A stretch of 64,000 nt of DNA from Nitrospirota bacterium (GTDB lineage Bacteria; Nitrospirota; Thermodesulfovibrionia; Thermodesulfovibrionales; JdFR-88), in assembly GCA_021825295.1 (NCBI GenBank), contig JAKAHV010000005.1, positions 8,512-72,511 of the forward strand, in the 5' to 3' direction. The translations under genes were made by a program, and so were the position numbers. The first letter of the stretch is position 1, and each line of letters begins with the position of its first letter. The notes below the pieces were generated by a model. It was not told where the DNA came from. It did no database searches and worked only from the letters and a program-made list of their open reading frames with translations. Shown here one piece after another: positions 34,300-62,763 of this stretch.

Positions 34300-34911
34300 T
34301 TACGCCGCTATGCCGATGATTACCAGCGGGACAGCGGGAACGCCGCGCCCCTGCCTTATAACATTGTAAATCTCACCTTCATAATAGGCGACGCCGGAAC
34401 TCATTTGACTTTGAAGGGATTTCATAGGGAGGATTTCAATGCCCACGTCAATGAAATCGCTGACATAGAAGGCCAGATGTTTGACAAACAAGTCATAGGC
34501 CACAAAAGAATACTTGCCGAACTGGACTTCAACCGCCACTCTGTCCTTTACGAAATCGGTTTGATTATAACTAAAAATCGGCGATTCGCCCGCCGCTTCA
34601 ATTTCCTTCTTTTGCTCTTCGGGCGGCATCGTCAGGGTTTTGCGAATCAATTTTTCACTTTTGGTAACCCAATAGCTGACCCTGCTTTCATGCCAGTTTT
34701 TGGCTTTTAAGAGACTGTCAAAATTTTTGTTTAAATCTATGGGGCTGCAGAGAACTTTTCCTCTCATGGTCTTTTCTTTTGATATTTTTGTCCTGCATTT
34801 TTCCGCATCAACGGATTCGATAACATTTTGTATTTCTTTCCAAAGGTCCGGCTTATGGACAAGCAGGAATTCAAGGCCGTTGAGATGGGAGTAAGTTTCG
34901 GCTATTTTCAT
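34300..34911 (-). CDS. type II restriction endonuclease, BglII/BamHI-fold family
   Basis: 203 aa. PDLWKEIQNVI near the N-terminus and the catalytic-core-like DRVAVEVQFGKYSFVAYDLF resemble my recollection of BglII (PQLWKEIE, TLVEVQFSNYPF). AT-rich codon usage. The start overlaps the methyltransferase stop. Confidence 0.7.
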   Translation of the reverse strand: MKIAETYSHLNGLEFLLVHKPDLWKEIQNVIESVDAEKCRTKISKEKTMRGKVLCSPIDLNKNFDSLLKAKNWHESRVSYWVTKSEKLIRKTLTMPPEEQKKEIEAAGESPIFSYNQTDFVKDRVAVEVQFGKYSFVAYDLFVKHLAFYVSDFIDVGIEILPMKSLQSQMSSGVAYYEGEIYNVIRQGRGVPAVPLVIIGIAA

Positions 34912-35858
34912 TGGCCAGGATATTTCCGTTTCTTTTCTTTAATCAACAGGGGTTGATCGGAATTGCCCGCTTTTACCCAAGGGGCAACCGTCAGGCTGTT
35001 GCCTGCTTTCCTGGGATCATACACGGGACGGTTCATGGGACGTGTTCTTAATATCCCGGCTAATTCTTTTTCTATTCTTTGTCCTGCAAGTCTGATATAT
35101 TGCGGAAGAATTTCCGCGCCGGCTCCCCGGCGATTATGACGGATCGCTGAAATTATTGATGTGCCAGTGCCGAGGAAAGGATCGAAGACCCAGTCGTCTT
35201 CACAAGTCATTGAAAGAACGAGTCTTTCTATAAGTTCAACGGGAAATTGGCACGGATGGTCCGTTTTTTCCACATGATTACTCTTAACATTGGGAATTAT
35301 CCATAAATCTCCAGGGTTTTTGCCAAGCGGATTGCAGGAATATTTACCGGCTTTCGGACCTTTAAAATATTTTTTGCCTGGATATTTCTGAGGAACTCTG
35401 ACAGGATCCAGGTTAAAAACATAATTATCCGATTTGGTAAACCAGATTATGGTTTCATAACGCCCTGAAAATCTGCGGCTGCAATGGAGGCCGTGCTCGA
35501 AATGCCATATTATTCTATTTCGCATTTTTAAACCAAGACTGGTAAATATCGGGTAAAGAACGGTATCTAAAGGAATAATGCTGCCGTTATCAACATAATT
35601 GCCGACCTGCCAGCAAATACTGCCGCGGGGGCTAAGACTCCTGGCGCACTCGCGGATTACAGCAGCCTGCTGTTCAAGATAATTTCCAAGCTTGAGCCTT
35701 TTTTCGTACTCTTTCCCGATATTGTACGGCGGTGAAGTAACAATAAGCTGCAGCGACTCGTCCGGGATTGCCGATAAGAGTTCCAGGCAATCTCCCTGAT
35801 AAATGATTATGCGCTCGGAACGTGAAAATTTTTCCGCTATGGTCCATTTATTAAACAC
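34908..35858 (-). CDS. DNA methyltransferase, beta-class, SPPY motif (predicted N4-cytosine or N6-adenine)
   Basis: Motif IV IVTSPPYNIGKEY precedes motif I DPFLGTGTS, which is the beta-class order. SPPY is more typical of m4C enzymes. Confidence 0.85.
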   Translation of the reverse strand: MFNKWTIAEKFSRSERIIIYQGDCLELLSAIPDESLQLIVTSPPYNIGKEYEKRLKLGNYLEQQAAVIRECARSLSPRGSICWQVGNYVDNGSIIPLDTVLYPIFTSLGLKMRNRIIWHFEHGLHCSRRFSGRYETIIWFTKSDNYVFNLDPVRVPQKYPGKKYFKGPKAGKYSCNPLGKNPGDLWIIPNVKSNHVEKTDHPCQFPVELIERLVLSMTCEDDWVFDPFLGTGTSIISAIRHNRRGAGAEILPQYIRLAGQRIEKELAGILRTRPMNRPVYDPRKAGNSLTVAPWVKAGNSDQPLLIKEKKRKYPGQ

Positions 35859-35914
35859 GCTTATTATCTTTAAAAATAAGTAGTGATAAAATCAAATGTT
35901 GATCTTCCCTTGCG

Positions 35915-36404: not shown

Positions 36405-36653
36405 ATGGATATTACAACCAAGCTCGCCCTGGTCCTCGGGCTTTTTTTCTTTACCGTCCTTTTGAACCTGCCCTTCGGCTACCTTAGGGCGAAGGTGAAA
36501 AAATTCTCCTTCCACTGGTTTCTCTATATACATCTGCCCATTCCGCTTATCTTTCTTGGCAGGAGGCTGTCGCAGCTTAGCTGGCATTACATCCCCCTGT
36601 TTGTGGCCGCGGCCCTTATAGGCCAGTTTTCGGGCGGCGGTCTCGTCTTCTGA
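36405..36653 (+). CDS. small hypothetical membrane protein
   Basis: 82 aa with three hydrophobic segments. Directly upstream of the two dehydrogenase genes. Confidence 0.45.
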   Translation: MDITTKLALVLGLFFFTVLLNLPFGYLRAKVKKFSFHWFLYIHLPIPLIFLGRRLSQLSWHYIPLFVAAALIGQFSGGGLVF

Positions 36654-36663
36654 TTCACCCCCC

Positions 36664-37698
36664 ATGCGGATGAAACAGCCGATGAAGCAGCTCTGGCTTG
36701 CGGCCCCGGGGAAAACCGAGCTAAGGACGGTGCCCGTGCCGGAGCCCGGAAGGGGGGAGCTTTTGATAAAGGTGGAGGCGGCCCTCACCTGCGGCACGGA
36801 CCTCAAAGCCTGGCAGCGCGGGCACAGGCTGATCCCGATGCCCGGTCCCTTCGGCCATGAATTTTCCGGGACCGTCGCCGCCGCCGGCAGCGGCGTCAGG
36901 AAATTCAGGCCGGGCGATGCCGTCATGGCCGTCCACACCGCCCCCTGTCTCGACTGTGATTACTGCAAAAAGGGGTTTTACAACCTCTGCCGCAACATCA
37001 TGGACACGAAAGTGCTGGGCGCCTTCGGCCAATACGTGCTGCTGCCCCGCCGCATAGTGCAAGTAAACACCTACCATAAACCGAAGGCCCTGTCATTCGA
37101 AGAGGCCGCCTTTCTTGAGCCGCTAAGCTGCGTGGTGCATGGCGTGGAGAGACTGGAGGCCGGCGGGAAAGGCGAAAACGCGCTGATATTCGGGGCCGGC
37201 CCGATAGGGCTTTTGCATCTTGTCCTGCTGAAGGCAAAGGGTCTCAGGGCCGCCGTCTGCGACCCCGGCCCCGCGAGGCTGAGACTTTCAAAAAAGCTTG
37301 GCGCCGATGCGGCCTTCAGGCCGGAGGACGCAAAAAAGGCGGTGGAACGATTCGCCCCCCTGGGCGCCGATTACGTGATAGAGTGCACCGGACGCAGGGA
37401 GGTCTGGCAGTCCGCCCCTGAATACGCAAGGCGCGGGGCAAAAATAATGCTCTTCGGCGGGCTCAAGGAAGGCATGCAAGTGGCATGGCCTTCCCACAGG
37501 CTCCACTACGATGAACTGACGCTCATGGCGTCCTTTCACTTTTGCCCCCGGGACGTGCGGCTGGCCGTCAGGCTCCTTTCGGAAAGAAGGATCGATGTGA
37601 AACCCCTCATATCGGGCATATGTACGCTTGCCGGGGCTGAAAGGGCACTCGGGCGCCTGGCCCTCGGCCGGGGAATAAAGTACGTGATTAAAACTTAG
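36664..37698 (+). CDS. zinc-dependent medium-chain alcohol/polyol dehydrogenase
   Basis: The catalytic zinc motif context is LTCGTDLKAWQRGH. A structural zinc Cys cluster (CLDCDYCKKGFYNLC) and a GAGPIGL Rossmann motif are also present. Confidence 0.85.
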   Translation: MRMKQPMKQLWLAAPGKTELRTVPVPEPGRGELLIKVEAALTCGTDLKAWQRGHRLIPMPGPFGHEFSGTVAAAGSGVRKFRPGDAVMAVHTAPCLDCDYCKKGFYNLCRNIMDTKVLGAFGQYVLLPRRIVQVNTYHKPKALSFEEAAFLEPLSCVVHGVERLEAGGKGENALIFGAGPIGLLHLVLLKAKGLRAAVCDPGPARLRLSKKLGADAAFRPEDAKKAVERFAPLGADYVIECTGRREVWQSAPEYARRGAKIMLFGGLKEGMQVAWPSHRLHYDELTLMASFHFCPRDVRLAVRLLSERRIDVKPLISGICTLAGAERALGRLALGRGIKYVIKT

Positions 37699-37709
37699 CG
37701 GGATGGCAG

Positions 37710-38756
37710 TTGAAGGTCGCGAAACTCTACAGTTTTAACGATATAAGGATAGAGGAGATGCCCGTCCCGGAGCCCGGCCCCGGGGAGGCCGTCATGAAGA
37801 CGATGGCCTCCGGAATCTGCTCGGGCGACCTGATGCCCTGGTACATAGAGAAAAAGGCTCCTCTTGTGCTTGGCCACGAGCCGTCAGGCGTGATCGTGGA
37901 GACGGGCGACGGAGTTTCCGGCTTCAAACCTGGCGACAGGGTGGCGGTCCATCACCATGCCCCCTGCATGGACACCGCAAGGTGTCCTTTCTGCAGAAAG
38001 GGCGATTTCGTCCACTGTCCCACATGGAAGGGCTCTTCCATCCATCCGGGCGGCATATCGGAATACATCCGCATACCCCGGGTAAACCTTGAAAACGATA
38101 CCCTCAAACTTCCCTCAGGCATTTCCTTCGAGGACGGGATGCTCGTGGAGCCCCTGGGGTGTGTGCTGAAGGGGATTCGGAGGGCCGGGCTTGCCGGCGG
38201 CGGGTTTCATGCGGAGACGGCCCTTGTCATAGGGCTTGGCGTAATGGGCGCCCTCCATGTGCTTGCCCTGAAGGCCCTCGGCGTAAAAAAGGTAATCGGC
38301 GCCGACCGGGTTTCCTACCGGATTCAAAAGGCCCTGGAACTTGGGGCCGATCACGCAATAGATGCCGGGCGCGAGGACCTGGAGCGGGCGGTTTACGGGA
38401 TCACCGGCGGGCGGATGGCTGATGTGGTGATAGCGGGGCCAAACAGCGTCCATGCGATGGAGGCGGCCGTTAAGACGGCGGGCGAGGGCGGAAGGGTCGT
38501 CCTTTTTACGCCGGCAAAACCGGGGGAGGCGCTCAGCATGGACCCAAACGAGATTTACTTCAGGGAGATCAGCCTCATACCGAGCTACTCGACGGGCCCG
38601 GAGGACACCAGGGCGGCGCTGAAGATGATAGAGGAGGGGCGCGTGAGGGCCAGGATGGTCGTTACCCATCGCTTCCCCATCGGGGATACTCCCGTGGCGT
38701 ACAGGCTCGCCGCGCAGGCCGGGGAGTCCCTGAAGATCGCAATTACATTTGAGTGA
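37710..38756 (+). CDS. zinc-dependent medium-chain alcohol/polyol dehydrogenase (second paralogue)
   Basis: GICSGDL...GHEPSG, the Cys cluster CMDTARCPFCRKGDFVHC and GLGVMG. Confidence 0.85.
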   Translation: MKVAKLYSFNDIRIEEMPVPEPGPGEAVMKTMASGICSGDLMPWYIEKKAPLVLGHEPSGVIVETGDGVSGFKPGDRVAVHHHAPCMDTARCPFCRKGDFVHCPTWKGSSIHPGGISEYIRIPRVNLENDTLKLPSGISFEDGMLVEPLGCVLKGIRRAGLAGGGFHAETALVIGLGVMGALHVLALKALGVKKVIGADRVSYRIQKALELGADHAIDAGREDLERAVYGITGGRMADVVIAGPNSVHAMEAAVKTAGEGGRVVLFTPAKPGEALSMDPNEIYFREISLIPSYSTGPEDTRAALKMIEEGRVRARMVVTHRFPIGDTPVAYRLAAQAGESLKIAITFE

Positions 38757-39268
38757 AAGTGAAACCCGGATGCGGAGGCGAAATGCGCGCGAAACAGGCA
38801 AAGGACAAAAACACTAGCAGGGTCTTCAAGCACAAGGGCGGTTGCTCATGGAAGGGTGTAAGGCCGGAGATATATAAAAAAGGCGGCCCCGGCGACTGGA
38901 CCAGGGTGGCAAGGCATCTCCTGGTGGCGGGTTTCAGGGGGGAGAAGACGAAATTCCACCTGAGATATTTCGAGGTCTCCCCCGGCGGATATACGAGCCT
39001 TGAGACCCACAGGCACGAGCATGTCGTGGTGGTCATAAAGGGGCGGGGCAGGGTGAGGCTTGGCCGCAGGCTTCGCGAGCTGGGTTACCTGGACACGGTT
39101 TACATAGGCCCGGATGAGCCGCACCGCCTGCTGAACCCCTACGGGGAACCGTTCGGGTTTTTCTGCATCGTGGACGCCCGGCGCGACAGGCCTGTGCCGC
39201 TTGATCCCGATGGAGATAAAGGCCGCCGGGCAATAGCGGCGTGCCAGTTGCCGCCTGCCGGGGATTGA
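38753..39268 (+). CDS. cupin-domain protein
   Basis: The cupin metal motif pattern is GGYTSLETHRHEHVVVVIKG...P..PH. The GTG start overlaps the preceding stop (GTGA). Confidence 0.7.
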   Translation: MKVKPGCGGEMRAKQAKDKNTSRVFKHKGGCSWKGVRPEIYKKGGPGDWTRVARHLLVAGFRGEKTKFHLRYFEVSPGGYTSLETHRHEHVVVVIKGRGRVRLGRRLRELGYLDTVYIGPDEPHRLLNPYGEPFGFFCIVDARRDRPVPLDPDGDKGRRAIAACQLPPAGD

Positions 39269-39342
39269 TTGATATTTGGCGGCAAAAAATATTATCATAA
39301 ACCTTGGGTTTTCGGGATTTTGCATGAAAGGAGTATTTCGTA

Positions 39343-40905
39343 TTGGCTTCAAAAAGCTTTTCCGACAGGGTCTGGTCTTTCTTCTCCTCCATTAAGCTTG
39401 CAATCGCAATATTCGCCTTAATCGGCCTTACCTCCATTGTGGGCACCGTGATAGAACAGCAGGCCTCCTACAATACGAACATCAGGGTGCTTAACCATCT
39501 TGTCGGGCAGGGGCTTGCGCCCACGGCCTACAGGGTGCTGGACGCCCTGGGGTTCATGAACATGTACCGTTCCTGGTGGTTTTTGTCGCTGCTGGTGCTC
39601 TTCGCGGTAAACCTGCTTGTCTGCTCGATTGACAGGTTCCCGGCCATCTGGCGCATCATGCGGGCCCCGGTAAAGCCGCTGGCGGCGGAGCAGATGATGA
39701 AGATGCCCATAAAGGCGGAATTCAGGTTACAGGGGAGCCCGGAGGAGATCGAGCGGAAGGCCGCCGCCGGGATGAAATCCATCGGTTTCAGGGCGGCCAG
39801 GCATGAAGAGGGGGACGGCGCGGTCGAGCTTTTCGCGCAGAAGCACGCCTGGAGCCGTTCGGGTGTCTTTATCACGCATTTCAGCATCCTCATAATCATG
39901 ATCGGGGCCGTATCGGGCATCTTCTTCGGTTTCAACGCGATGTTGAACCTGCCCGAGGGCTACTCCACAAACGTCGTCTTTTCCCGTTCCGTCGATCTCT
40001 CCGACCAGGCGGAAAACGCCGTAAGGGCGAACCTGATGGGCGCGCTGGACTCCGCGGGGGGCGACATCAACCAGGCCGCCAGGGCCGCAGGCGAGGATGC
40101 GGCCAGCTTCAAAAAGGGCATGGAGCAGGCGGGGCTTATCCCCCTTAATTTCCAGGTGCTCTGCCAGCAATTCGAGGTCAAATACTACGGGCAGAGCGAT
40201 ATGCCGAAGGCATACAGGAGCCTGCTTACGGTGATTGATCACGGCAAGCCGGTCCTCACCAAGTGGGTTGAGGTGAACCATCCGCTTAAATACCATGGCG
40301 TTACGTTCTATCAGTCAAGCTACGGCCTCATGGACGACCTGTCAAACGGCATAGCCGAGCTCGATGTGAAATCCCCGAACGGGCAGTCCGTGACGGAGCG
40401 GCTTAAGATCGGCCAGAGCTTCCAGATACCGGGCACCGAGGAGACGGTGAAGCTGGCGGAGTTCAATCCGGCGCTGGCCTTCGACGATTCCGGGAAAGCC
40501 ATAACGTACTCGCAGATGATGACAAACCCCGCCGTCAGGGTCGAGATAACGGACGGCAAAGGGCCCGGGGTGTCCAAATGGATAGCCCAGAGATATCCGG
40601 AGACCTGGAGCCTGCCGGACGGCAGCACCGTGGGCCTGAAGGATTTCTGGGGCGTCCAGTACACGGGGCTGCAGGTCAGAAAAGACCCCGGCGTGTGGAT
40701 CGTCTATCTGGGCTGCATAACCCTGGCGCTCGGCCTTATGGTGGCTTTTTTCATGAGCCACAAGAAGATATGGATTCGCCTTGAGCCCGAGCAAAAAAAG
40801 AAGGGCACGCGCCTCATGATTGCGGCCACTTCCAACAAAAACAGGCAGGCATTCGAAAGGACCGTCGAAAAACTCGCCCTCGAATTGGAAAAAGGAGGTA
40901 AATAG
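39343..40905 (+). CDS. ccsB: System II cytochrome c biogenesis protein CcsB/ResB
   Basis: SSIKLAIAIFALIGLTSIVGTVIEQ is the ResB N-terminal signature. A large periplasmic domain and a C-terminal TM segment follow. Confidence 0.85.
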   Translation: MASKSFSDRVWSFFSSIKLAIAIFALIGLTSIVGTVIEQQASYNTNIRVLNHLVGQGLAPTAYRVLDALGFMNMYRSWWFLSLLVLFAVNLLVCSIDRFPAIWRIMRAPVKPLAAEQMMKMPIKAEFRLQGSPEEIERKAAAGMKSIGFRAARHEEGDGAVELFAQKHAWSRSGVFITHFSILIIMIGAVSGIFFGFNAMLNLPEGYSTNVVFSRSVDLSDQAENAVRANLMGALDSAGGDINQAARAAGEDAASFKKGMEQAGLIPLNFQVLCQQFEVKYYGQSDMPKAYRSLLTVIDHGKPVLTKWVEVNHPLKYHGVTFYQSSYGLMDDLSNGIAELDVKSPNGQSVTERLKIGQSFQIPGTEETVKLAEFNPALAFDDSGKAITYSQMMTNPAVRVEITDGKGPGVSKWIAQRYPETWSLPDGSTVGLKDFWGVQYTGLQVRKDPGVWIVYLGCITLALGLMVAFFMSHKKIWIRLEPEQKKKGTRLMIAATSNKNRQAFERTVEKLALELEKGGK

Positions 40906-40907
40906 AA

Positions 40908-41996
40908 TTGGAAAGCTCGTTATTTTTCGGCCTTTCCACTATGGCATACATCCTGGCAATGGTGGTCTACATAACCTATATCGGCTTCAGGAAGAAGGCG
41001 ATCGGGGTCACGGCGAGTGGTCTGACCATGTTCGGCTTCGCCTCGCAGACCCTGGCGATACTGCTTAGATGGAAGGAATTCTACCAGATCTCCGGCATGG
41101 GGCTTTTGCGCTCCATACCGCTTACAAACCTCTATGAATCGCTGGTCTTTTTCGTATGGTGCCTCATACTGGGCTACCTGATAGTGGAGTTCCGCTATAA
41201 AAACCGCTCCTTCGGCGCCTTCGTGACTCCGGTGGCTGCCCTTGCCCTGCTGTTCATAAGCCTCTCGGGTATGTCCACGCAGATAGAGCCCCTGGTGCCG
41301 GCCCTGCAGAGCAACTGGCTTCTGGCCCACGTGACGCTCTCTTTTATCTCCTATTCGGCCTTTGCCCTCTCCTTCAGCACGGGGCTCATGTACCTGATAG
41401 CCACCACAAAGCGCGGAGAAGGCGCCTACGCGTTCTGGACAGTGACGCTGGGTGTGTTCCTTGCGGTGCTTATGGCCATGGTGCTTGACTTCATAAGGTT
41501 CAAGGCGGCGGGCCTGGCGCCGGGCTCTGAGGAATTCATAAAAAGCTTCCTCTTCAAAAGCACCTACAAAAACCCCGAGGCTTCCATGCGGCTGGTAAGC
41601 TATCTGGCCACGATCCTGATCATATTCCTGACATGGAGGTATGGGGGGGCCCTCAAGAGGATAATCGAAGGTTTTAAGCTCCAGCCCGCGACGCTCGATG
41701 AGATAACCTACAAGGCCGTGGCCATAGGCTTTCCGATTTTCACCCTTGGCGGCCTCATATTCGGGGCCATCTGGGCCGACCAGGCATGGGGTGTTTACTG
41801 GAGCTGGGACCCCAAGGAGACCTGGTCCCTCATAACCTGGTTCATCTACGCATTCTATCTGCACGCGCGGTTCCTGAGGGGATGGCGCGGGCACAAGATC
41901 TCGGTGGTCGCCGTAATGGGTTTCGTGGCGGTTATATTCACGTACCTCGGGGTCAATCTGCTTTTAAGCGGGCTGCACTCCTATGGGAGCCGGTAG
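40908..41996 (+). CDS. ccsA: System II cytochrome c biogenesis protein CcsA/ResC
   Basis: WWD-type tryptophan-rich motif WGVYWSWDPKETWSLITW. TTG start 9 nt after AAGGAGG. Confidence 0.9.
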   Translation: MESSLFFGLSTMAYILAMVVYITYIGFRKKAIGVTASGLTMFGFASQTLAILLRWKEFYQISGMGLLRSIPLTNLYESLVFFVWCLILGYLIVEFRYKNRSFGAFVTPVAALALLFISLSGMSTQIEPLVPALQSNWLLAHVTLSFISYSAFALSFSTGLMYLIATTKRGEGAYAFWTVTLGVFLAVLMAMVLDFIRFKAAGLAPGSEEFIKSFLFKSTYKNPEASMRLVSYLATILIIFLTWRYGGALKRIIEGFKLQPATLDEITYKAVAIGFPIFTLGGLIFGAIWADQAWGVYWSWDPKETWSLITWFIYAFYLHARFLRGWRGHKISVVAVMGFVAVIFTYLGVNLLLSGLHSYGSR

Positions 41997-43494
41997 AGAA
42001 AAGAGGGCTATCCGTTCGAGCCTGAAAGGCAGATTTCTGCTGGCCGCGGGCGGCCTGCTTCTGGCCGTCCTGGGATTTCTCAATTACCAGGGCTACGCCT
42101 ACGGTCGCCACCGCATAATCGAAGGCTACTCCCGCAGTCTCTCCAATATTACGGAGGTGGTCAAAAGCGGCCTGACGACCGTGATGACGAGCGGCAACGA
42201 GAGCCTGTTCAGGAATTTCATCACGGCCGGCATGACCGAAAACCTCAAGGTAATGCGCCTCATAAACCCGGACAGCGGCAAGATCATCTCCTCCACCATG
42301 GCCTCGGAGGACAATTACGTCATGAAAAACCCGCCCCTCGAGAGAAAGATCGTCATGGACGGCCGGGGAATCCCGCTATCGATGTTCGTCCCCATATACA
42401 ACAACAAGCCCTGCCAGGGCTGCCATGGCGCTGAAAAAGAGATACTTGCGGTGCTGAACGTGGAGCTTGTAAACCAGGAGGCGGCCGACAGGCTCCGCGC
42501 GCTTAAAAACAGGGCCATGATTTCCTTCGGGGCGGGCTTTCTGCTCATATTCATGCCGCTGTCGCTCTTTTATATCCGCTTTGTGGACAAACCTCTGAAG
42601 TCCATACAAAAGAGCGCGAAGGCGGCCGCCGGAGGGGATTTTACCGTAAAATTCCGCGATGGGCGGCCGGAAGGGGCCCGGGGCATGGATTACCGGGGCC
42701 CGGACGAGCTTGGCAGGCTCTGCGCGGACTTAAACCATGTATTCGGGAATTTCAGGCGGATGAAGGCGGAATTTGAAAGCCGTTCGGCCGAGACGGTGGC
42801 GAAGATGGAAAAGATGGCCACCCTTGGAGAGCTGGCGGCGGCCGTGGCGCATGAGATCAAAAATCCGCTGGCGGGCATCAGCGGGGCCATACAGGTTTTT
42901 GCCGAGGACATCCCCGGAAATGACCCCAGAAAAGAGATTATAAATGACGTCCTGGGCGAGATAGACCGCCTCGACCAATCCGTAAGGAACCTGCTTGCCT
43001 ACGCGAGGCCCCCCATACTGCGCCCGGTGAATATGGACCTCCTCTCGGTCGTCGAGCGCGCCAGGAGGCTCACGGAAAAACAGGCCGACTCGCAGGGCGT
43101 GCAGATAGTAATGCCCTCCATGGCCGCTGCGCCCGCCGTCATCGAGGCGGACCCGGAGCAGATGCAGCAGGTCTTTTTCAATATCTTCCAGAACTGCCTG
43201 CGCTCCATGCCAAGCGGAGGGGTGCTTTCCGTCGAGATCCTGCCTGGCGCCGGCGAAGAGGTGGAGGTCCGGATTTCGGACACCGGCATGGGCATACCGG
43301 CCGATTCCCTGGAGCACATCTTCAAGCCCTTTTTTACGACGAAACATTCGGGTTCGGGCCTGGGGCTTGCCATCAGCAAGAATATCGTTGAAGAGCACGG
43401 CGGCCGGATCGAGGTCGAGAGCCGGCCCGGCTTGGGGAGCACTTTTCATGTTATAATGCAAAGCCGCATGGCAGCGTCCCGGAAAGATGGCTAA
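41983..43494 (+). CDS. sensor histidine kinase with periplasmic CxxCH (putative haem c) sensor domain
   Basis: Two TM segments flank a periplasmic region of ~140 aa containing NKPCQGCHG (42412-42426). It also has HAMP-like, H-box (AAAVAHEIKNPL) and HATPase (GSGLGLAISK) regions. The start overlaps the ccsA stop by 14 nt. Confidence 0.85.
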   Translation: MGAGREKRAIRSSLKGRFLLAAGGLLLAVLGFLNYQGYAYGRHRIIEGYSRSLSNITEVVKSGLTTVMTSGNESLFRNFITAGMTENLKVMRLINPDSGKIISSTMASEDNYVMKNPPLERKIVMDGRGIPLSMFVPIYNNKPCQGCHGAEKEILAVLNVELVNQEAADRLRALKNRAMISFGAGFLLIFMPLSLFYIRFVDKPLKSIQKSAKAAAGGDFTVKFRDGRPEGARGMDYRGPDELGRLCADLNHVFGNFRRMKAEFESRSAETVAKMEKMATLGELAAAVAHEIKNPLAGISGAIQVFAEDIPGNDPRKEIINDVLGEIDRLDQSVRNLLAYARPPILRPVNMDLLSVVERARRLTEKQADSQGVQIVMPSMAAAPAVIEADPEQMQQVFFNIFQNCLRSMPSGGVLSVEILPGAGEEVEVRISDTGMGIPADSLEHIFKPFFTTKHSGSGLGLAISKNIVEEHGGRIEVESRPGLGSTFHVIMQSRMAASRKDG

Positions 43495-44872
43495 GACAAA
43501 GATACTTGTAATTGACGACGAAAAACTCCTCAGGTGGTCCCTTGAACAGAACCTCTCAAAGGACGGCTATCAGGTAATAACCGCGGAAAAAGGGCTGGAC
43601 GGCCTCACCGTGTTCCGGGAGGAGTCCCCCGATATAACGCTCCTGGACATCCACCTGCCGGACATATCCGGCATAACCGTGCTTGAAGGGCTCAAGGAGA
43701 TAAACAAGGACGCCGTTGTCATAATGATAACGGCCTTCGGAGACGTCCAGACGGCAGTAAAGACCATAAAGCTCGGCGCCCATGATTTCGTCGAAAAACC
43801 CTTCAATATGGACAAGCTCAAGATCATCATACAAAAGGCGCTTGAGACCTGCACCCTGAGGAAGGAGGTCTCCCAGTTCCGCTCCCAACTCAGCTCACGG
43901 TACGGCTTCGAAAGCATCATCGGGCAGTCTGCCCCGGTAAAAAAGATCCTCGGGCTGATAGAGAAGGTCTCCAGAAGCGATGCCACCACGGTCCTTATGC
44001 AGGGGGAGAGCGGCTCGGGCAAGGATCTGGTCGCCAAGGTCATCCATTACCAGAGCGCCCGCATGGAAAAGCCCTTCATAGAGATAAACTGCACGGCCTT
44101 GCCGGAAAACCTTATCGAAAGCGAGCTCTTCGGTTATGAAAAAGGCGCCTTCACGGATGCCAGGGCGATGAAAAAAGGGCTCTTCGAGCTTGCCGACAGG
44201 GGCACGATATACCTGGACGAAATCGCTGACATGAGGCTCAACACCCAGGCCAAGCTCCTGAAGGTGCTCGAGAACAAGGCCTTCAAGCGCGTGGGGGGGA
44301 TAAAGGACATAGAAGTCGACCTGCGCATAATAGCCGCCACAAACAAATCGCTCGATGAGGAAGTGAAGAAGGGGAATTTCCGGGAGGACCTCTACTACAG
44401 GCTGAAGGTCGTCCCGATACACCTGCCGCCCCTGAGGGAGCGCGGCGAAGACATCCTGCTTCTGGCCCGCTATTTCATAGACACCTTCAACCGCGAATTC
44501 AGGAAGAACGTAAAGGGCCTTTCCAGGGACACGGAGACCCTTTTCCTCGAATACCACTGGCCCGGCAATGTGCGGGAGCTGAAAAACGTGATAGAAAGGG
44601 CCATGATACTCGAAAACGAGGAGTTGATACTGCCGGAGCACCTGCCGCTTGAACTCTGCTCCGACAACTCCGATGGCGCGGAAAACAATGATGTGGATGT
44701 AAAACTGCCCGCCGGGGGGCTGGACATCGAAAAGGTCGAAAAGGAACTTATAAGACAGGCCCTGGATACTACCAGGGGCAATCAGACGAAAGCCGCCAAA
44801 CTGCTTAATCTGACGAGAGACACGCTCCGTTACCGGATGCAGAAATTCGGTTTTCTTCCTGATAAAGAATAA
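43487..44872 (+). CDS. sigma-54-dependent response regulator (NtrC/AtoC family)
   Basis: Receiver domain (ILVIDDE...LLDIHLPD), an AAA+ domain with GESGSGKD and a GAFTDA loop, and a C-terminal Fis-type HTH. Overlaps the kinase gene by 8 nt. Confidence 0.9.
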   Translation: MAKTKILVIDDEKLLRWSLEQNLSKDGYQVITAEKGLDGLTVFREESPDITLLDIHLPDISGITVLEGLKEINKDAVVIMITAFGDVQTAVKTIKLGAHDFVEKPFNMDKLKIIIQKALETCTLRKEVSQFRSQLSSRYGFESIIGQSAPVKKILGLIEKVSRSDATTVLMQGESGSGKDLVAKVIHYQSARMEKPFIEINCTALPENLIESELFGYEKGAFTDARAMKKGLFELADRGTIYLDEIADMRLNTQAKLLKVLENKAFKRVGGIKDIEVDLRIIAATNKSLDEEVKKGNFREDLYYRLKVVPIHLPPLRERGEDILLLARYFIDTFNREFRKNVKGLSRDTETLFLEYHWPGNVRELKNVIERAMILENEELILPEHLPLELCSDNSDGAENNDVDVKLPAGGLDIEKVEKELIRQALDTTRGNQTKAAKLLNLTRDTLRYRMQKFGFLPDKE

Positions 44873-44943
44873 AACTGGATTATTAAAAAAAAGAGTTTCG
44901 AAATATAGCACGCTTTTTGCTGCAACCAATCTAATATACCGGA

Positions 44944-45297
44944 ATGAATATCCTAATTGTAGATGACGAACAGCTCGTCAGGTGGTTCCTCGAGAGGGCG
45001 CTATCGCGTCTCGGACACAAGATTGTATCGGTTTCCAGCGCCGCGGAGGCCGTCCGGGCCCTCTCCAGTGAGAGGTTCGACCTCATGTTCACCGACCTGA
45101 GGATGCCTGAGGAAAATGGCGCAGTTTTGATAGAAAAAGTGAGTGAAATCACCAAAGGCAACCCACCGAAGATAGTGGTTTGCTCCGCTTATCTGACCTC
45201 CGAGATGATCGATGGATATAAAAACGGGGGAATAAGGGTCCTTAGAAAGCCCTTCAAGCTCGAGGAGCTGGAGGGCATACTGGCCGATTCGGCCTAG
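44944..45297 (+). CDS. single-domain response regulator (CheY-like)
   Basis: 117 aa. NILIVDDE, FTDLRMP and a conserved Lys context (VLRKPF). Confidence 0.85.
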   Translation: MNILIVDDEQLVRWFLERALSRLGHKIVSVSSAAEAVRALSSERFDLMFTDLRMPEENGAVLIEKVSEITKGNPPKIVVCSAYLTSEMIDGYKNGGIRVLRKPFKLEELEGILADSA

Positions 45298-48855: not shown

Positions 48856-50538
48856 TTAGAGTGCCCGCTGCCCGTTCGGCGGGGTGCAGGCCGGCAGGAA
48901 GAGACTGACGACGGTCCCCTTTCCGGACTCGCACGTGACTTCAATGCCGCCTTTCATCTTCGACATCATCTTTTTCACGATCACAAGCCCCAGCCCGGTC
49001 CCCTTCGGCTTTGTGGTATGAAACGGTTTAAACAGGTTGCGCATCTGCTCCCCGGTCATGCCCGGGCCGTTGTCCTCCACCGTGACCAGTATCATGTCCT
49101 CCAGCCCGGAGGTCTTCACCGTAATGACAGGCTCAGGGACACCCTCCAGGGCGTCGGCGGCATTTGAGAATACATTTAAAAGGGCATGATTGAAGGCCCT
49201 CTCATCCATGTGCGCGCGCTCGGCGCTGGGGCTCAGGCAGGACTTTATTTTTATTCCCTTCGCCAGGAAGTCGGCTTTGGCCATGGCCAAAAAATTATCC
49301 AGAAAGGCCCGGAGGCTCACGCAGTCCGATTTTACTTCCTCGAAAAGGTTGAAGCTTTTCAGGGATTTCAGGAGAAACTCGATCCTTGCCACGCCCTCCA
49401 GCGCCCTGTCGATATAATCGCCGATTTTTTCCCCCGGCAACGTCCTGTACTGTCTTTTCAGGATATCGAGATTGAACTTGGTGGTATTGAGCGGATTTCC
49501 AAGCTCATGCCTGATGCCGCTGAAGACGTATCCGATATTGTCCATCATGTTCAGGGCCTCGGCGATCGACTCCAGGCGCTTTTTTTCGCTGATGTCGCGG
49601 AATATCACGCTGACCCGCGTGTTGCCGCTCTTGTCCCTGAACACGGCGGCGGAATGCTCGCAGGGGATCTTTTCGCCGTTTTTGCGCAGGCATGTGACCT
49701 CTCCCCTGGCCTTTCCCGACCGCGCCCGTTCCTCAAGATAGAGCTTCACTTTCGGGTCCGCCATGTCCAGGATACCGCTCCTGCCGGCCTCGAGTATCTC
49801 TTCCTCCGTCCTCCCCAGGATGCTGCAGGCCTCCGGATTTGCCGCGAGGATGCGGCCTTCAGGCGAGCTAAGCAGGATTCCATCCAGGCTGTGATTGAAA
49901 AAAGACCTGTACTGCTCCTCGCTCTCCTTCAGGGCCTCTTCCGCCTTTTTGCGTTCCGCTATCTCGGCCTCCAGCTCCTCGTTGGCGGCGGCAAGCTGGG
50001 CCGTCCGCTCGGCAACGCGTCTCTCAAGCGCTTCCTCCAGTTCTTTCTCGGCGGTGACATCCTCCAGGACCAGCAGGGCAAAAAGCTCTCCCAGATAACG
50101 AAAAGGAGCGGCGGTCACGGAAAAAAACTTTTCCTCGATCCGGCCGACACTGGCCAGTTTCATCCTTGCCGTTTCACGATGGACTCTTCCGCCCCCGAAA
50201 ACCTTCATCACGGAATTCCTGATGACGCAATCCCTGCACGCCGGGGCATGGCCGCAGCCGCCCGGAGCCTCGGAGGCATGGATGCAGTACAGGAGTTCGC
50301 CGCCTCTCCTGAATAATACGCGTCCCCTTTCCGCCCCCAGAAGCGACAGCGCGGCGGCATTCAGGTGGTGGATCCGGACGTCGGAGTCTACGATGAACAG
50401 GAAAGAGGGGACCGCGTCGAAGACGCTCTGCAGGAATTCGGAATTATCGAACAAATGCTGTATCATTTTTGGCCCGCATGCGGCTTTCAGTTCAAAATAA
50501 CTTCCCGCCCCCCCTAGCATTCTAAAAAAAATTGACAT
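48856..50538 (-). CDS. multi-PAS sensor histidine kinase
   Basis: Two PAS-like regions, a coiled coil, an H-box (FSGIRHELGNPL) and HATPase (GTGLGLVIVKK). The real start is probably the ATG at 50466 (MIQHLFDNSEF). Confidence 0.85.
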   Translation of the reverse strand: MSIFFRMLGGAGSYFELKAACGPKMIQHLFDNSEFLQSVFDAVPSFLFIVDSDVRIHHLNAAALSLLGAERGRVLFRRGGELLYCIHASEAPGGCGHAPACRDCVIRNSVMKVFGGGRVHRETARMKLASVGRIEEKFFSVTAAPFRYLGELFALLVLEDVTAEKELEEALERRVAERTAQLAAANEELEAEIAERKKAEEALKESEEQYRSFFNHSLDGILLSSPEGRILAANPEACSILGRTEEEILEAGRSGILDMADPKVKLYLEERARSGKARGEVTCLRKNGEKIPCEHSAAVFRDKSGNTRVSVIFRDISEKKRLESIAEALNMMDNIGYVFSGIRHELGNPLNTTKFNLDILKRQYRTLPGEKIGDYIDRALEGVARIEFLLKSLKSFNLFEEVKSDCVSLRAFLDNFLAMAKADFLAKGIKIKSCLSPSAERAHMDERAFNHALLNVFSNAADALEGVPEPVITVKTSGLEDMILVTVEDNGPGMTGEQMRNLFKPFHTTKPKGTGLGLVIVKKMMSKMKGGIEVTCESGKGTVVSLFLPACTPPNGQRAL

Positions 50539-56674: not shown

Positions 56675-58228
56675 TTATCTCTCCAGGACCGAATGGAGTT
56701 TCCTGTTTAAGTCCTCCAGCCTGTAGGGTTTTGCTATCGATTCCATGTAGCCGTACTTCCTGAAATCCCGCATCACCGGATCGTCCGGGTAGCCGCTGGA
56801 GGCGATGGCCCTTACCCTGGGGTCCAGCTCCAGAAGTCTTTTTATTACCTGGGGGCCTCCGCCGCCGGGCATCGTCAGGTCCAGGACGACCGCATCGAAG
56901 GGATTGCCCGACTGGGAGGCGCTTCTGTAGATTTCAACGGCGCTGTTGCCGTCCGCGGCATAGGCGACCTCGTAGTCCAGATTCATGAGCATCTCGCCCG
57001 CGACCTCGCGCACCATCTCCTCGTCATCGACGACCAGGACCCTCCCCGCGCCGGTCTTTGAATCTGTTCTGGGAATTTCCCCCTCCAGCGCGGGCAGATA
57101 GATGTAGAAAGTCGTCCCTTCGCCCGGCTCCGATTCCACCCCCACAAACCCGTTATGCTTGCTGATTATCGAGTAGACTATGGCAAGCCCCATCCCCATC
57201 CCTTTAAGGCTTCCCATCTTCTTGGTGGTGAAATAGGGGTCGAATATTCTCTCCAGATTTTCCGGTGGGATGCCCCGTCCCCTGTCTGCCACCTTTATCC
57301 TTACATACCGCCCGTTTTTCACAAGCGGCAGGGGGGAATGCCCCCCGGCCGTCCTGAAGTTGTCCGCCTCCAACGTGATCCTGCCTCCTGCCGGCATCGC
57401 CTCCCGGGCGTTTGCAATCACGTTTTGCAGGACTATTTTCATCTGGGCCCGGTCGGCCTCCACGGGCCAGAGGTCCTGGCAAAAACGAAATTCGGCGCTG
57501 ACGGGCGAGCCGGCAAGGGTCTGGGCCGCCGCGTCCCTCAGGACTTCCGGCAGCAGGAGTTTCTCCTTGCAGGGCTCCCCTCCCTTTGAGAAGGTAAGAA
57601 GCTGATATGTCAGGTCCTTGGCCTTCAGCGAGGCGCGCTCGGCGTCGGCAAGCCTCTCATAGAGTTTCCCTCCGCCGGGGGGCAGATTCATTTTGGCCAG
57701 TGAGATGTTCCCGAGGATTGCTGTAAGGAGGTTGTTGAAATCGTGGGCGATGCCGCCGGCCAGCAGCCCGACGGATTCGAGTTTTCTGGCCTTTAAAAGC
57801 TCGTATTCGATGCTTTTGCCGCGGGTGACGTCGTTCAGGAGAAGCAGCCTGGCCCTTCCCGGCCCTCTTTCTCCCGCAAATTCTATATTCCGGATGGTTA
57901 TCTCCAGGTCGGCAACCCCGTCGTCCTTCCCCCGGTGGCTGCAGGCAAAGCCGGTTACCTCCTCATCGCCGGAGACGATCTCCAGTAGCTGCGTATCGAA
58001 GCCGAGCTGCTTGAAATCCGCGGCGGGAAAATCCTTCCCGGTGTCTTTCGGACCGGCGCCGCAGCAGCTCATTGCGGCCTTGTTTGCATCCAGGATCTTC
58101 AGGCTCGCCGGGTCGATTATCATGACGGGCTGCGGGTTTGACTCAAACAGCAGGCGGTACCATTCCGGCCCCCCGGGTATTTTTTCTTTTCCCCCCATAG
58201 AAACGCCCCCCCGTTTTAAAAAAGGCAT
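56675..58228 (-). CDS. hybrid sensor histidine kinase / response regulator with PAS domain
   Basis: A PAS region, an H-box (GIAHDFNNLL), HATPase (GMGMGLAIVYS) and a C-terminal receiver (VLVVDDE...VLDLTMPG). Confidence 0.85.
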   Translation of the reverse strand: MPFLKRGGVSMGGKEKIPGGPEWYRLLFESNPQPVMIIDPASLKILDANKAAMSCCGAGPKDTGKDFPAADFKQLGFDTQLLEIVSGDEEVTGFACSHRGKDDGVADLEITIRNIEFAGERGPGRARLLLLNDVTRGKSIEYELLKARKLESVGLLAGGIAHDFNNLLTAILGNISLAKMNLPPGGGKLYERLADAERASLKAKDLTYQLLTFSKGGEPCKEKLLLPEVLRDAAAQTLAGSPVSAEFRFCQDLWPVEADRAQMKIVLQNVIANAREAMPAGGRITLEADNFRTAGGHSPLPLVKNGRYVRIKVADRGRGIPPENLERIFDPYFTTKKMGSLKGMGMGLAIVYSIISKHNGFVGVESEPGEGTTFYIYLPALEGEIPRTDSKTGAGRVLVVDDEEMVREVAGEMLMNLDYEVAYAADGNSAVEIYRSASQSGNPFDAVVLDLTMPGGGGPQVIKRLLELDPRVRAIASSGYPDDPVMRDFRKYGYMESIAKPYRLEDLNRKLHSVLER

Positions 58229-59630: not shown

Positions 59631-60764
59631 TTATTTCTTCCAGTTTGTGTCAATGCCGCAGAGTGCGGCGCTGAAGTACAGGCCGTATTTGTAGTGGCAG
59701 CCGCCGCAGATCGACACCGGGGGGCCAACCATCTCGTGCCTCTGGAGGCTGTAGAGCTGCAGCACGCCGTCGGTGATGAGTTTGCCGCCCGGGCCGGGAT
59801 GGGGCACCCTCACAGTCAGGAGGGCATACCTGCCGTCAGGGGTGGAGATTGCGTCATGGTTTTGCCCGTTCGGGCAGCCGGGTTCGGTTTTGAGGCTTGC
59901 CTTTCCCGTTGCCGGAAACATATGCTGGTCCACGAGCTTGAGCGTTTTTGCGTCTATCACCCAGAACCTGTCGCCTGCGGCCTGCAGCAGGTACTTGCCA
60001 TCGGGCGTGAAATTCTGTCTGAAGGTGATGGTGTCGCCGGGGCTGCCGGAGAGGGTGTTCCTGGCGATGACCTTTATCCTGCCCTCAAGCAGGCTCTTCA
60101 TGTCCAGCAGCACGAAATCCACGTTGCCGTTTGGCTTGCCGTTGGTCATCCTGTTGACGGCCACCACGAATTCCTTCATGTCGGGCGTGTTGGTGCCGTG
60201 GAAGAAGAGGTAGTTGTGGTTTTTGTAGCCGAGCTTGTCCAGGAAGACGCGGTGAAGAAGCTTCATCGTTTTTTTGTCCCGCACGTCAATGTACGCCTCG
60301 TCGGTCATCGTGACCGGCAGATAGCTGGTCTTGCTCTGCCCGGAGGCGCAGTAACAGTGCTTGGTCTCCGTGGCCCGCGGGTCGGGGCTTACGGCCTCGT
60401 CCATGATGACCTTGCCAGTCCTGAGGTCCGACTTGCCCACGTGCAGCTTTCCACCGGGGTCCTTGTGATAGGTCGCCCAGTACATGATGTTCCTGTTTTC
60501 CAGGTCGATCCTCGGGTCATGCACCGCGTGGTCGTCCTTGCCGCCTATGATTATCCTGTCGAGGTTATTGACCTTGATGGGTTCGGGACCGGACGGGTCT
60601 ATAGTCAGATCGATGGCGGCGAAGTGTCCGCCCATGCCTGCCACATAAGCCATCCCGCTGTAGGTCCTTCCCGCCGCCTTTGCCGCCGGCACCCGGTGGC
60701 CGGACAGCAGATAGCCGCCGGCTATCAGGGCCAGCGCCGCCATTGCCGTCAGAAATTTCTTCAT
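59631..60764 (-). CDS. secreted beta-propeller-like protein with C-terminal CxxCH haem c motif (function unknown)
   Basis: Signal peptide MKKFLTAMAALALIAGG...AAKA. Repeated strand-turn motifs typical of propellers (TPDGKYLL, TPDGRYALLT). CGGCH at 59694-59708, 21 residues from the C-terminus. GGAGGAG RBS. Confidence 0.6.
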   Translation of the reverse strand: MKKFLTAMAALALIAGGYLLSGHRVPAAKAAGRTYSGMAYVAGMGGHFAAIDLTIDPSGPEPIKVNNLDRIIIGGKDDHAVHDPRIDLENRNIMYWATYHKDPGGKLHVGKSDLRTGKVIMDEAVSPDPRATETKHCYCASGQSKTSYLPVTMTDEAYIDVRDKKTMKLLHRVFLDKLGYKNHNYLFFHGTNTPDMKEFVVAVNRMTNGKPNGNVDFVLLDMKSLLEGRIKVIARNTLSGSPGDTITFRQNFTPDGKYLLQAAGDRFWVIDAKTLKLVDQHMFPATGKASLKTEPGCPNGQNHDAISTPDGRYALLTVRVPHPGPGGKLITDGVLQLYSLQRHEMVGPPVSICGGCHYKYGLYFSAALCGIDTNWKK

Positions 60765-60932
60765 TGAACTCCTCCATTTTGTTTTTTCCCCGCGATAAAA
60801 AAACTACTGCCGGCCTAAAAATAAAATTCCGATGCACCTCCTCCCGCCCGGCGGGCCTCTGAATGGCCCCGCCGGCCATATGATGTCAATTAACCATCAT
60901 TTAATTAATAAACTACTAAACTCCTTTAGTAA

Positions 60933-60949
60933 TTGCAACTTTCATGCCA
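60933..60949 (-). promoter_or_regulatory. sigma-54 (-24/-12) promoter
   Basis: The reverse strand reads TGGCATGAAAGTTGCAA. This matches TGGCAC-N5-TTGCW with correct GG-to-GC spacing, about 170 nt upstream of the propeller gene ATG. Confidence 0.6.
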
Positions 60950-61052
60950 CAAAAAATTCCTTGAAAATAAAGGATTTCAGATCTGAAGTTTTTGCATTTG
61001 CGCAAAAATCTTTTTCATATCTGCAAATTGGAAAGGAGAATGAAAGCCGGGG

Positions 61053-61085
61053 GATTCCCCGCGGCGCATCAGGCCGCGGGGAATC
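61053..61085 (-). terminator. 13-bp perfect stem hairpin just after the cytochrome gene stop
   Basis: gattccccgcggc-gcatcag-gccgcggggaatc. On the transcribed strand a moderately T-rich tract follows (CTTTCATTCTCCTTTCC). Confidence 0.5.
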
Positions 61086-61090
61086 ATGGG

Positions 61091-61984: not shown

Positions 61985-61988
61985 ATCC

Positions 61989-62741: not shown

Positions 62742-62763
62742 TGTCTTTCACCTCCGTCCGTTC

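Follow-up and report, generated by a model that had tools for sequence, protein, structure and literature searches.

A predicted haem-c sensor kinase encoded with the System II synthase CcsBA in a gene unit of Nitrospirota

In the window analysed here, a stretch of 64,000 nucleotides (nt) from contig JAKAHV010000005.1 of Nitrospirota assembly GCA_021825295.1, genes for the cytochrome c synthase proteins CcsB and CcsA are followed on the plus strand by genes for a membrane-bound sensor histidine kinase, an NtrC-type regulator and a single-domain receiver. By its sequence and modelled fold, the kinase is a further member of the known sCache_haem (GSU0935) family, and its periplasmic domain is predicted to carry covalent haem. 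The five genes most likely form a unit conserved in Nitrospirota, with the first four tightly coupled on one transcript. We consider it reasonably probable, though well short of certain, that CcsBA matures the sensor, that a His/Met-ligated haem reports periplasmic redox state or nitric oxide (NO) or carbon monoxide (CO), and that sigma-54 promoters are activated by the NtrC-type regulator. All of the evidence is computational, and the comparison draws on about 19 further contigs, all apparently of one phylum. The genes and the relevant parts of the kinase are as follows.

39343 to 40905, plus strand: ccsB (resB), 520 amino acids (aa), Pfam ResB
40908 to 41996, plus strand: ccsA (resC), 362 aa, Pfam Cytochrom_C_asm
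41983 to 43494, plus strand: sensor histidine kinase, 503 aa, Pfam HAMP, HisKA and HATPase_c; order of parts: first transmembrane helix (TM1), periplasmic sCache_haem, second transmembrane helix (TM2), HAMP, HisKA (phospho-His290), HATPase
42091 to 42510, plus strand: sCache_haem (PAS-like) sensor domain, aa 37-176
42184 to 42186, plus strand: codon of Met68, predicted distal axial haem ligand by alignment to Met60 of GSU0935
42412 to 42426, plus strand: CQGCH haem-c attachment motif, aa 144-148 (Cys144, Cys147, proximal His148)
43487 to 44872, plus strand: NtrC-type regulator, 461 aa, Pfam Response_reg, Sigma54_activat, AAA_lid_14 and HTH_8
44944 to 45297, plus strand: single-domain receiver, the fifth conserved gene, Pfam Response_reg (E 5.7e-20)

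The kinase has exactly two hydrophobic segments (aa ~17-36 and ~177-199), which flank a loop of 140 aa, and a basic N-terminus with five Lys or Arg residues against one Asp or Glu. Since HAMP and the ATP-dependent core of the kinase follow TM2 without a break, the loop can only lie on the periplasmic side, as an earlier note on this DNA, made from the sequence alone, had proposed. A cytoplasmic loop and a poorly conserved CxxCH were two of the outcomes by which that note would have been refuted, and on both counts the result favours a haem-c sensor. The start codon, which overlaps ccsA, is confirmed by the N-terminal MGAGRE that orthologues keep. CQGCH is the sole CxxCH of the kinase and lies inside the loop. 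From the amino-acid composition of the window, such a motif is expected about 4.5e-4 times per 140-aa loop, and Cys144, Cys147 and His148 are invariant in 120/120 best homologues (34-100% identity), so the motif is more than a chance occurrence. The candidate distal ligand Met68 is retained in 117 of these homologues. The earlier note had offered conservation of the motif and of a distal ligand as checks on its proposal of haem attachment, and the CxxCH comes through both as a conserved, predicted haem-c site. The coordinates that it gave, 42412-42426, fit CQGCH but not the heptapeptide PCQGCHG that it named, which occupies 42409-42429.

A phmmer comparison with PDB sequences aligned the loop with 3B42 (GSU0935) at E 9e-4, which is weak as a single-sequence match, and also with 3B47 (GSU0582), in both cases with the CxxCH aligned. 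A profile built from 33 orthologous N-terminal regions gave E-values of 3.8e-11 for 3B42 and 1.2e-5 for 3B47. CQGCH aligns with CQSCH of both GSU0935 and GSU0582, within the common context P-x-x-N-x-x-x-C-x-x-C-H, and Met68 aligns with Met26 of chain 3B42_A. This residue is Met60 of GSU0935, the chain-to-protein offset of 34 being fixed by His110 of 3B42, which is His144 of GSU0935. The window kinase scores 21 bits against PF21563, below the Pfam threshold of 27, and has no Pfam match to PF11845; about half the orthologues have precomputed PF21563 matches. Residues 1-262 were modelled with AlphaFold2 (mean pLDDT 87). In the model, one long helix (14-70) extends out of TM1 into the periplasmic space, and another (165-216) makes up TM2 and the HAMP segment. 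Between them lies a five-strand sheet (88-94, 100-104, 122-125, 131-139 and 154-162), and CQGCH sits on a lower-confidence insertion between its last two strands. In a Foldseek search, the model matches WalK in its extracellular sCache domain (E 5e-5), as well as 3B42 and 3B47 with probabilities of 0.98-0.99. Extracytoplasmic location, Cache/PAS-like fold, inserted CxxCH, sequence homology and a Met in the N-terminal helix as candidate distal ligand are the defining features of an sCache_haem domain that computation can assess, and the one protein has them all.

GSU0935 and GSU0582 are chemoreceptors of Geobacter sulfurreducens, whose periplasmic haem-c domains were reportedly described by Londer (2006) and Pokkuluri (2008). 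Like the window kinase, they have a PAS-like/sCache fold between two transmembrane helices and one CxxCH at the same position, which supplies the proximal His, while the distal Met comes from the N-terminal helix. They differ in that the domain belongs to a chemoreceptor there but here to a histidine kinase that feeds a sigma-54 activator, with only ~19% identity, and no report places the Geobacter genes in an operon with ccsBA. In GSU0935, the haem of the low-spin form is ligated by His144 and Met60, a change of spin and ligation accompanies the redox transition, and NO and CO bind reversibly by displacing the Met (PMC8396549). The family was renamed sCache_haem in a 2026 preprint, which counts ~20,000 members with enrichment in Nitrospirota, finds the domain fused to kinases, chemoreceptors and c-di-GMP enzymes, reports NO binding and states that haem attachment requires a cytochrome c maturation system (PMC12889525). 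As used here, the family comprises the DUF3365/Tll0287-like proteins together with GSU0582 and GSU0935 (preprints PMC12889525 and 10.64898/2026.05.25.727664). The window kinase shares with it a Cache domain outside the cytoplasm into which a CxxCH segment is inserted, the fusion to HAMP and a kinase and the occurrence in Nitrospirota, where the family is enriched, and would share its dependence on a maturation system for haem attachment. The text of the first of these preprints (PMC12889525) reports no neighbourhood with cytochrome c maturation genes.

CcsB and CcsA are the two subunits of the System II cytochrome c synthase. This enzyme exports haem to the periplasm and joins it there to CxxCH motifs. 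The ccsB product aligns with the ResB family (PF05140, E 2.9e-94) over residues 18-508 of 520, and the His within its ITHFS motif corresponds to a transmembrane histidine of Helicobacter hepaticus CcsBA (PDB 7S9Y). The ccsA product matches PF01578 (E 1.4e-47) and, with 262 bits, lies above the cut-off of 187.6 for the NCBIfam equivalog TIGR03144. Its WWD motif WGVYWSWDPKETW and three histidines (in LAHV, LHARF and GLHSYG) also align with CcsBA of 7S9Y. The pair therefore presents what is expected of System II, namely a ResB-family protein with a transmembrane His and a CcsA whose WWD domain is flanked by haem-ligand histidines. Because the WWD motif and conserved histidines align with 7S9Y and the equivalog cut-off is exceeded, CcsBA is predicted to be catalytically complete and looks like an ordinary, general System II enzyme. 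Across the loci compared, CcsA is 61-93% identical. Neither the 64-kb window nor any of the loci examined showed a second ccsBA. The unit contains no thioredoxin-like (resA) gene, and the thiol-reduction partners CcdA and ResA/CcsX are likewise not in the operon.

The kinase core and the regulator are of familiar types. The kinase core is most like that of ZraS and AtoS (ZraS, PDB 9JFJ, E 1e-45). The regulator has the receiver, sigma-54-interaction (Sigma54_activat, E 9e-68), AAA_lid_14 and Fis-type helix-turn-helix (HTH_8) domains of the NtrC family, with the phospho-accepting Asp54 in LLDIHLPD. Its nearest named relatives are AtoC, NtrC and ZraR, and it scores under every equivalog cut-off. 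Among named systems, the kinase core and regulator thus come nearest to ZraSR and AtoSC of Enterobacteria; the periplasmic sensors of these systems are unrelated, and since the scores fall far under the equivalog cut-offs, the window proteins are not their orthologues. The loop that contacts sigma-54 (44144-44161) reads GAFTDA, against the canonical GAFTGA, and does so in 18/18 orthologues detected.

The first four genes are tightly packed, with a gap of 2 nt between ccsB and ccsA and overlaps of 14 nt between ccsA and the kinase and of 8 nt between the kinase and the regulator. The earlier note had described these four plus-strand genes, and the open reading frames (ORFs), Pfam identities and spacings found here all agree with it. 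Its unit of four is indeed a tight unit, but the conserved unit has a fifth gene, the receiver, which it missed.

To place the unit in other genomes, contigs were gathered with the kinase itself, by a genome scan and by a metagenome scan, and the window proteins were then mapped on them (individual loci carry L numbers below). This gave ~19 further distinct contigs, whose source labels, where present, are Nitrospirae/Nitrospirota, Nitrospira or Thermodesulfovibrio. A locus scan with a 10-sequence alignment yielded 10 genome loci and 3 metagenome loci; the breadth of conservation rests on the ~19 contigs. An identical kinase occurs on a 4-kb contig of the Nitrospirota metagenome-assembled genome GCA_027426215.1. 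The ccsB-ccsA pair lies directly 5' of the sensor gene in all of the ~19 contigs that have upstream sequence, with sensor identity falling to 27%. In all contigs but two (L011 and L020), the sensor gene is followed by the regulator and then by a single-domain receiver of 117-130 aa, and wherever a locus has the regulator and enough downstream sequence, the receiver gene comes directly after it. Gaps and overlaps are <=63 nt in most loci, with an annotated gap of 144 nt in L016. Divergence within the unit is uneven. Identities in L012, for instance, are 31% for the sensor loop, 58% for the kinase core, 72% for CcsA and 77% for the regulator.

Both exceptions keep the sensor beside ccsA. In L011 (7995-9446), a full kinase gene follows ccsA, no regulator or receiver is present, and htpX is next. 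In L020 (5878-6834), the gene directly after ccsA encodes a 318-aa protein made of a transmembrane helix, an sCache_haem domain (CQKCH), another transmembrane helix, HAMP and a coiled coil; kinase core, regulator and receiver are all missing from this locus and htpX is directly downstream. The L020 protein has the Cache_haem-HAMP architecture of a Pseudomonas azotoformans receptor (10.64898/2026.05.25.727664), which pairs with a Ser/Thr kinase, unlike the system in the window. These losses imply that the signalling output is not always needed.

Outside the phylum, the nearest relatives are kinases of Bryobacteraceae (Acidobacteriota), which carry the CX4CH variant CAVAECH (L021 233-1813, L025 8001-11487 and L026 6001-9448). 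In L025 and L026, a gene for an M54 (archaemetzincin-like) peptidase stands between the kinase and an NtrC-type regulator, and no ccsBA lies in the vicinity; the L021 sequence is not long enough to reveal its gene context. Because these acidobacterial relatives lack ccsBA, the coupling to ccsBA therefore appears specific to the Nitrospirota orthologous group and not general to sCache_haem kinases.

The genes around the unit are also shared by most loci: upstream of it stand a cupin gene and two alcohol dehydrogenase (ADH) genes, and downstream of it htpX and the genes for an epimerase and an aminotransferase. In the window, the conserved upstream block (36405-39268) consists of an 82-aa membrane ORF, the two zinc-type ADH genes and the cupin gene; it is absent from L018 and L024. 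Part of the conservation is therefore regional synteny. The five-gene core is nevertheless kept where the flanks change, as in L018 and L024, which lack the upstream ADH and cupin genes, and in L018, L022 and L023, which lack htpX.

Two transcription signals bear on how the unit is expressed.

39266 to 39298, plus strand: sigma-70-type promoter of the ccsB operon, TTGATTGATATTT...AAAAATATTATCAT, between the cupin stop codon and ccsB
44906 to 44921, plus strand: sigma-54-like -24/-12 element, TAGCACGCTTTTTGCT, 22 nt 5' of the receiver start codon

The promoter scan at ccsB returned TTGATA-18-TATCAT, with 10/12 matches, and ccsB itself starts with TTG behind the ribosome-binding site GAAAGGAG. 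The -10-like box TATTATNAT recurs 5' of ccsB in other loci, including L018 and L020 with their different flanks, and the box TTGATTGNTATTT recurs there in most loci. A GG/GC sigma-54 element was sought in the 400 nt 5' of ccsB and is absent from 21/22 sequences, L002 having one weak, non-conserved match (8/11). Across all loci scanned, no conserved sigma-54 promoter was found 5' of the ADH genes, the cupin gene, htpX or ccsB. Given the sigma-70-type promoter and the lack of a conserved sigma-54 element, the operon appears to begin at ccsB and to be expressed constitutively. For want of a conserved sigma-54 promoter 5' of ccsB, the candidate reading that ccsBA is autoregulated through sigma-54 was rejected. 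A Fur box in the AT-rich -10 region of the same promoter was also rejected, a key position being C, G, T or A among the loci. Comparison with Rfam gave no match to a known RNA element in any part of the window.

The second signal lies between the NtrC-type regulator gene and the receiver gene. The sequences from NtrC stop to receiver start are 36-183 nt long and otherwise unalignable, and have in common the element [AT]TAGCA[CT]G[CT]TTTTTGC[TA]. In its exact form, TAGCAY-N5-TTGCW, the element occurs once per locus and only in this interval in the 13 fetched loci and in L022. Examples are found at 10494 in L002, 10984 in L003, 10969 in L005, 10825 in L012, 10853 in L015, 10765 in L016, 8889 in L019 and 9848 in L022. 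Degenerate forms are present in L010, L024 and L018, and the element is absent from L013 and L023. Its distance to the start codon was 22-26 nt in the ten loci measured. Other matches to TAGCAY-N5-TTGCW are few across 321 kb of locus DNA, and the canonical TGGCAY-N5-TTGCW does not occur in any locus. In L003, L005, L007 and L008, a hairpin with a T-run separates the NtrC stop from the element. With sigma-54 spacing and the extended consensus TGGCACG-N4-TTGCW, the element reads as a candidate promoter under which the receiver gene would be separately controlled. Sigma-54 promoters nearly always have GG at -24; here the first G of the doublet is replaced by A, giving TAGCA where TGGCA is expected. 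In some loci the element forms a perfect inverted repeat, TAGCA-N7-TGCTA. A pure inverted-repeat operator seems less likely, because the loci that read TTGCA break the repeat yet keep the sigma-54 consensus.

Taken together, we infer the following scheme. The sigma-70-type promoter would drive ccsB, ccsA, kinase and regulator as a single transcript, so that the sensor would be made together with its maturation machinery and signalling would be tied to a commitment to c-type cytochromes. CcsBA would link one haem covalently to Cys144 and Cys147, with His148 as proximal ligand and Met68 as an exchangeable distal ligand. Reduction, oxidation, NO or CO would then decide, as in the Geobacter domains, whether the haem is low-spin with Met bound or free of Met. 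As Met68 sits on a helix continuous with TM1, the switch could be transmitted through the membrane by a displacement of that helix, and TM2 and HAMP would relay the signal to His290 in the ZraS/AtoS-like core. The phosphoryl group would go to Asp54 of the NtrC-type activator, which would remodel the sigma-54 holoenzyme at its target promoters. The adjacent receiver gene is the one visible and best candidate target of the regulator, and its product may serve as a feedback phosphate sink or, alternatively, as a branch output.

Several observations weigh against this scheme. The activator has GAFTDA in place of the canonical loop, and the promoter assigned to it has AG in place of GG and could, as the inverted repeats suggest, be an operator. 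No sigma-54 promoter is found at ccsB, and with a sigma-70-type promoter in its place there is no sign of feedback by the regulator on ccsBA. The sensor stays beside ccsA in L011 without a regulator and in L020 without either kinase core or regulator. Finally, a block of ~12 genes is syntenic in most loci, so that part of the conservation may be phylogenetic inertia and not a sign that selection maintains the coupling.

This last point leads to an alternative, which we regard as unlikely: a housekeeping System II ccsBA would have an unrelated redox- or NO-sensing two-component system downstream, transcribed by read-through and kept in place by the high synteny of the region. The ~12-gene block does include the unrelated ADH, cupin, htpX, epimerase and aminotransferase genes, CcsA behaves as a housekeeping enzyme would in its conservation across loci and its general equivalog score, and a canonical haem motif requires no special lyase. 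Historical linkage does not readily account, however, for a five-gene core that outlives rearrangements on both sides (L018, L022, L023 and L024), for genes that overlap or lie close together in most loci (the annotated gap of L016 aside), or for a sensor that stays beside ccsA after the other signalling genes have been lost.

The same adjacency bears on a reading that builds on the earlier note, where haem loading was named beside redox state as a possible signal. In it, the kinase, made from the same mRNA as CcsBA and dependent on it for haem, would be a sentinel substrate whose ratio of apo to holo form reports the capacity for periplasmic haem attachment or the supply of haem. We judge this to be quite improbable, and give just as little credence to the corresponding output, in which the sigma-54 activator would adjust apocytochrome, haem or maturation genes to that capacity. 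The 14-nt overlap would couple translation of the sensor to that of ccsA, and the presence of sensor beside synthase in every Nitrospirota locus, even where regulator or kinase core is gone, favours the idea slightly; an adjacency so invariant would also fit a direct link, functional or physical, of the sensor domain to CcsBA. That the acidobacterial kinases have no link to ccsBA marks the association as lineage-specific, and a canonical sigma-54 promoter does lie in the same window 5' of a gene for a mono-haem protein, beside a nine-haem cytochrome cluster. Yet nothing ties the NtrC-type regulator to that promoter (60934-60949), and ccsB itself has a sigma-70-type promoter and none for sigma-54. 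Characterised members of the family, moreover, signal by a change in haem redox state or ligation and not by haem occupancy (PMC8396549, PMC12889525), and the conserved, exchangeable Met68 speaks for a ligand or redox switch.

It is very improbable that CcsBA is a specialised isoenzyme with the sensor as its main or only substrate: lyase genes do adjoin a haem-c protein gene in the dedicated System II pairs NrfI/NrfA and CcsA1/MccA of Wolinella and in the four ResB/ResC pairs of Geobacter, whose neighbours are particular multihaem cytochrome genes (PMC12285233, PMC2700814), as ccsBA invariably does here, but dedicated lyases serve CxxCK or CX15CH, sites out of reach of the general lyase (PMC12285233), in respiratory enzymes, whereas the neighbour here is a signalling protein with one canonical CxxCH (120/120), and the lyase looks general, being highly conserved, above the general equivalog cut-off and without a second ccsBA beside it in the window or in any locus examined.

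The redox- and gas-sensing scheme set out above also has to be placed among systems that link cytochrome c maturation to signalling. In the Bacillus subtilis resABCDE operon, as in the window, resB and resC are co-transcribed with a two-component system for respiratory or redox control. The window unit has no resA, ResE has no haem c, ResD is an OmpR-type regulator and not a sigma-54 activator, and the receiver-only fifth gene has no counterpart in res. The likeness is one of analogy and not of homology in the signalling part, and the window unit is no member of the res type. The earlier note had drawn this distinction correctly, on the haem-c domain of the kinase and the sigma-54 activator as regulator. 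Its further claim of an independent solution does not stand for the haem-c loop, which was not separately invented but falls within the described sCache_haem (GSU0582-GSU0935) family. In Corynebacterium glutamicum, HrrSA links haem status to the System II genes ccsX-ccdA-resB-resC (PMC3353115). HrrS, in contrast to the window kinase, has no haem-c domain, HrrA is of the LuxR type, the hrrSA genes lie outside the resBC operon, and in the window system no regulatory link to ccsBA was found.

A literature search found no paper on ccsBA coupled to a haem-c sensor kinase. The parts of the unit are of known kinds; their combination in an operon and the unusual pair of promoter and activator appear to be undescribed. 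In this pair, an unusual activator loop (GAFTDA) meets an unusual -24 element (TAGC) in a conserved candidate target promoter. To our knowledge, the coordination of cytochrome c maturation with demand is poorly understood beyond ResDE of Bacillus and HrrSA of Corynebacterium, and here a predicted haem-c sensor kinase is hard-wired into a System II operon throughout a phylum of anaerobic bacteria that in many cases rely on multihaem cytochromes. CcsBA and its putative single-haem membrane substrate would make a natural minimal cognate pair for studies of substrate handling by System II, and the kinase a test case for sCache_haem signalling through a sigma-54 activator. If the sensor reports only redox state or NO, it would be a useful but ordinary new member of its family. 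Were it instead to report the success of haem attachment, it would be a built-in quality checkpoint of cytochrome c biogenesis, which is not known for any maturation system.

Elsewhere in the window, a cluster on the minus strand (59631-63882) encodes an NrfD-like membrane protein (62764-63882), a 4Fe-4S protein (61989-62741) and a nine-haem c7-type cytochrome (61091-61984). The cytochrome gene is followed by the palindrome TTTGCGCAAA and then by the canonical sigma-54 promoter TGGCATGAAAGTTGCA (60949-60934). The earlier note had pointed to a sigma-54 promoter at 60933-60949, and the element is indeed present there, one position shorter. It lies ~170 nt 5' of a gene for a 377-aa secreted protein with a C-terminal CGGCH, for which neither Pfam nor NCBIfam gave a match. 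An NrfD, Fe-S and cytochrome cluster beside the acidobacterial kinase of L025 was considered as a target in common with this cluster and was dropped, being absent from L026.

Upstream of the unit, a low-GC stretch at ~34300-35900 (0.45 against ~0.58) contains two minus-strand ORFs, one of which starts like a DNA methyltransferase. It lies between an AdoMet synthase gene and the conserved 82-aa ORF. Since these flanking genes are adjacent in the relatives L002 and L015, the stretch is probably an inserted restriction-modification cassette. Less than 15 kb from the operon, the minus strand encodes two more histidine kinases, both cytoplasmic with PAS domains (48856-50538 and 56675-58228), one of them a hybrid with a receiver.

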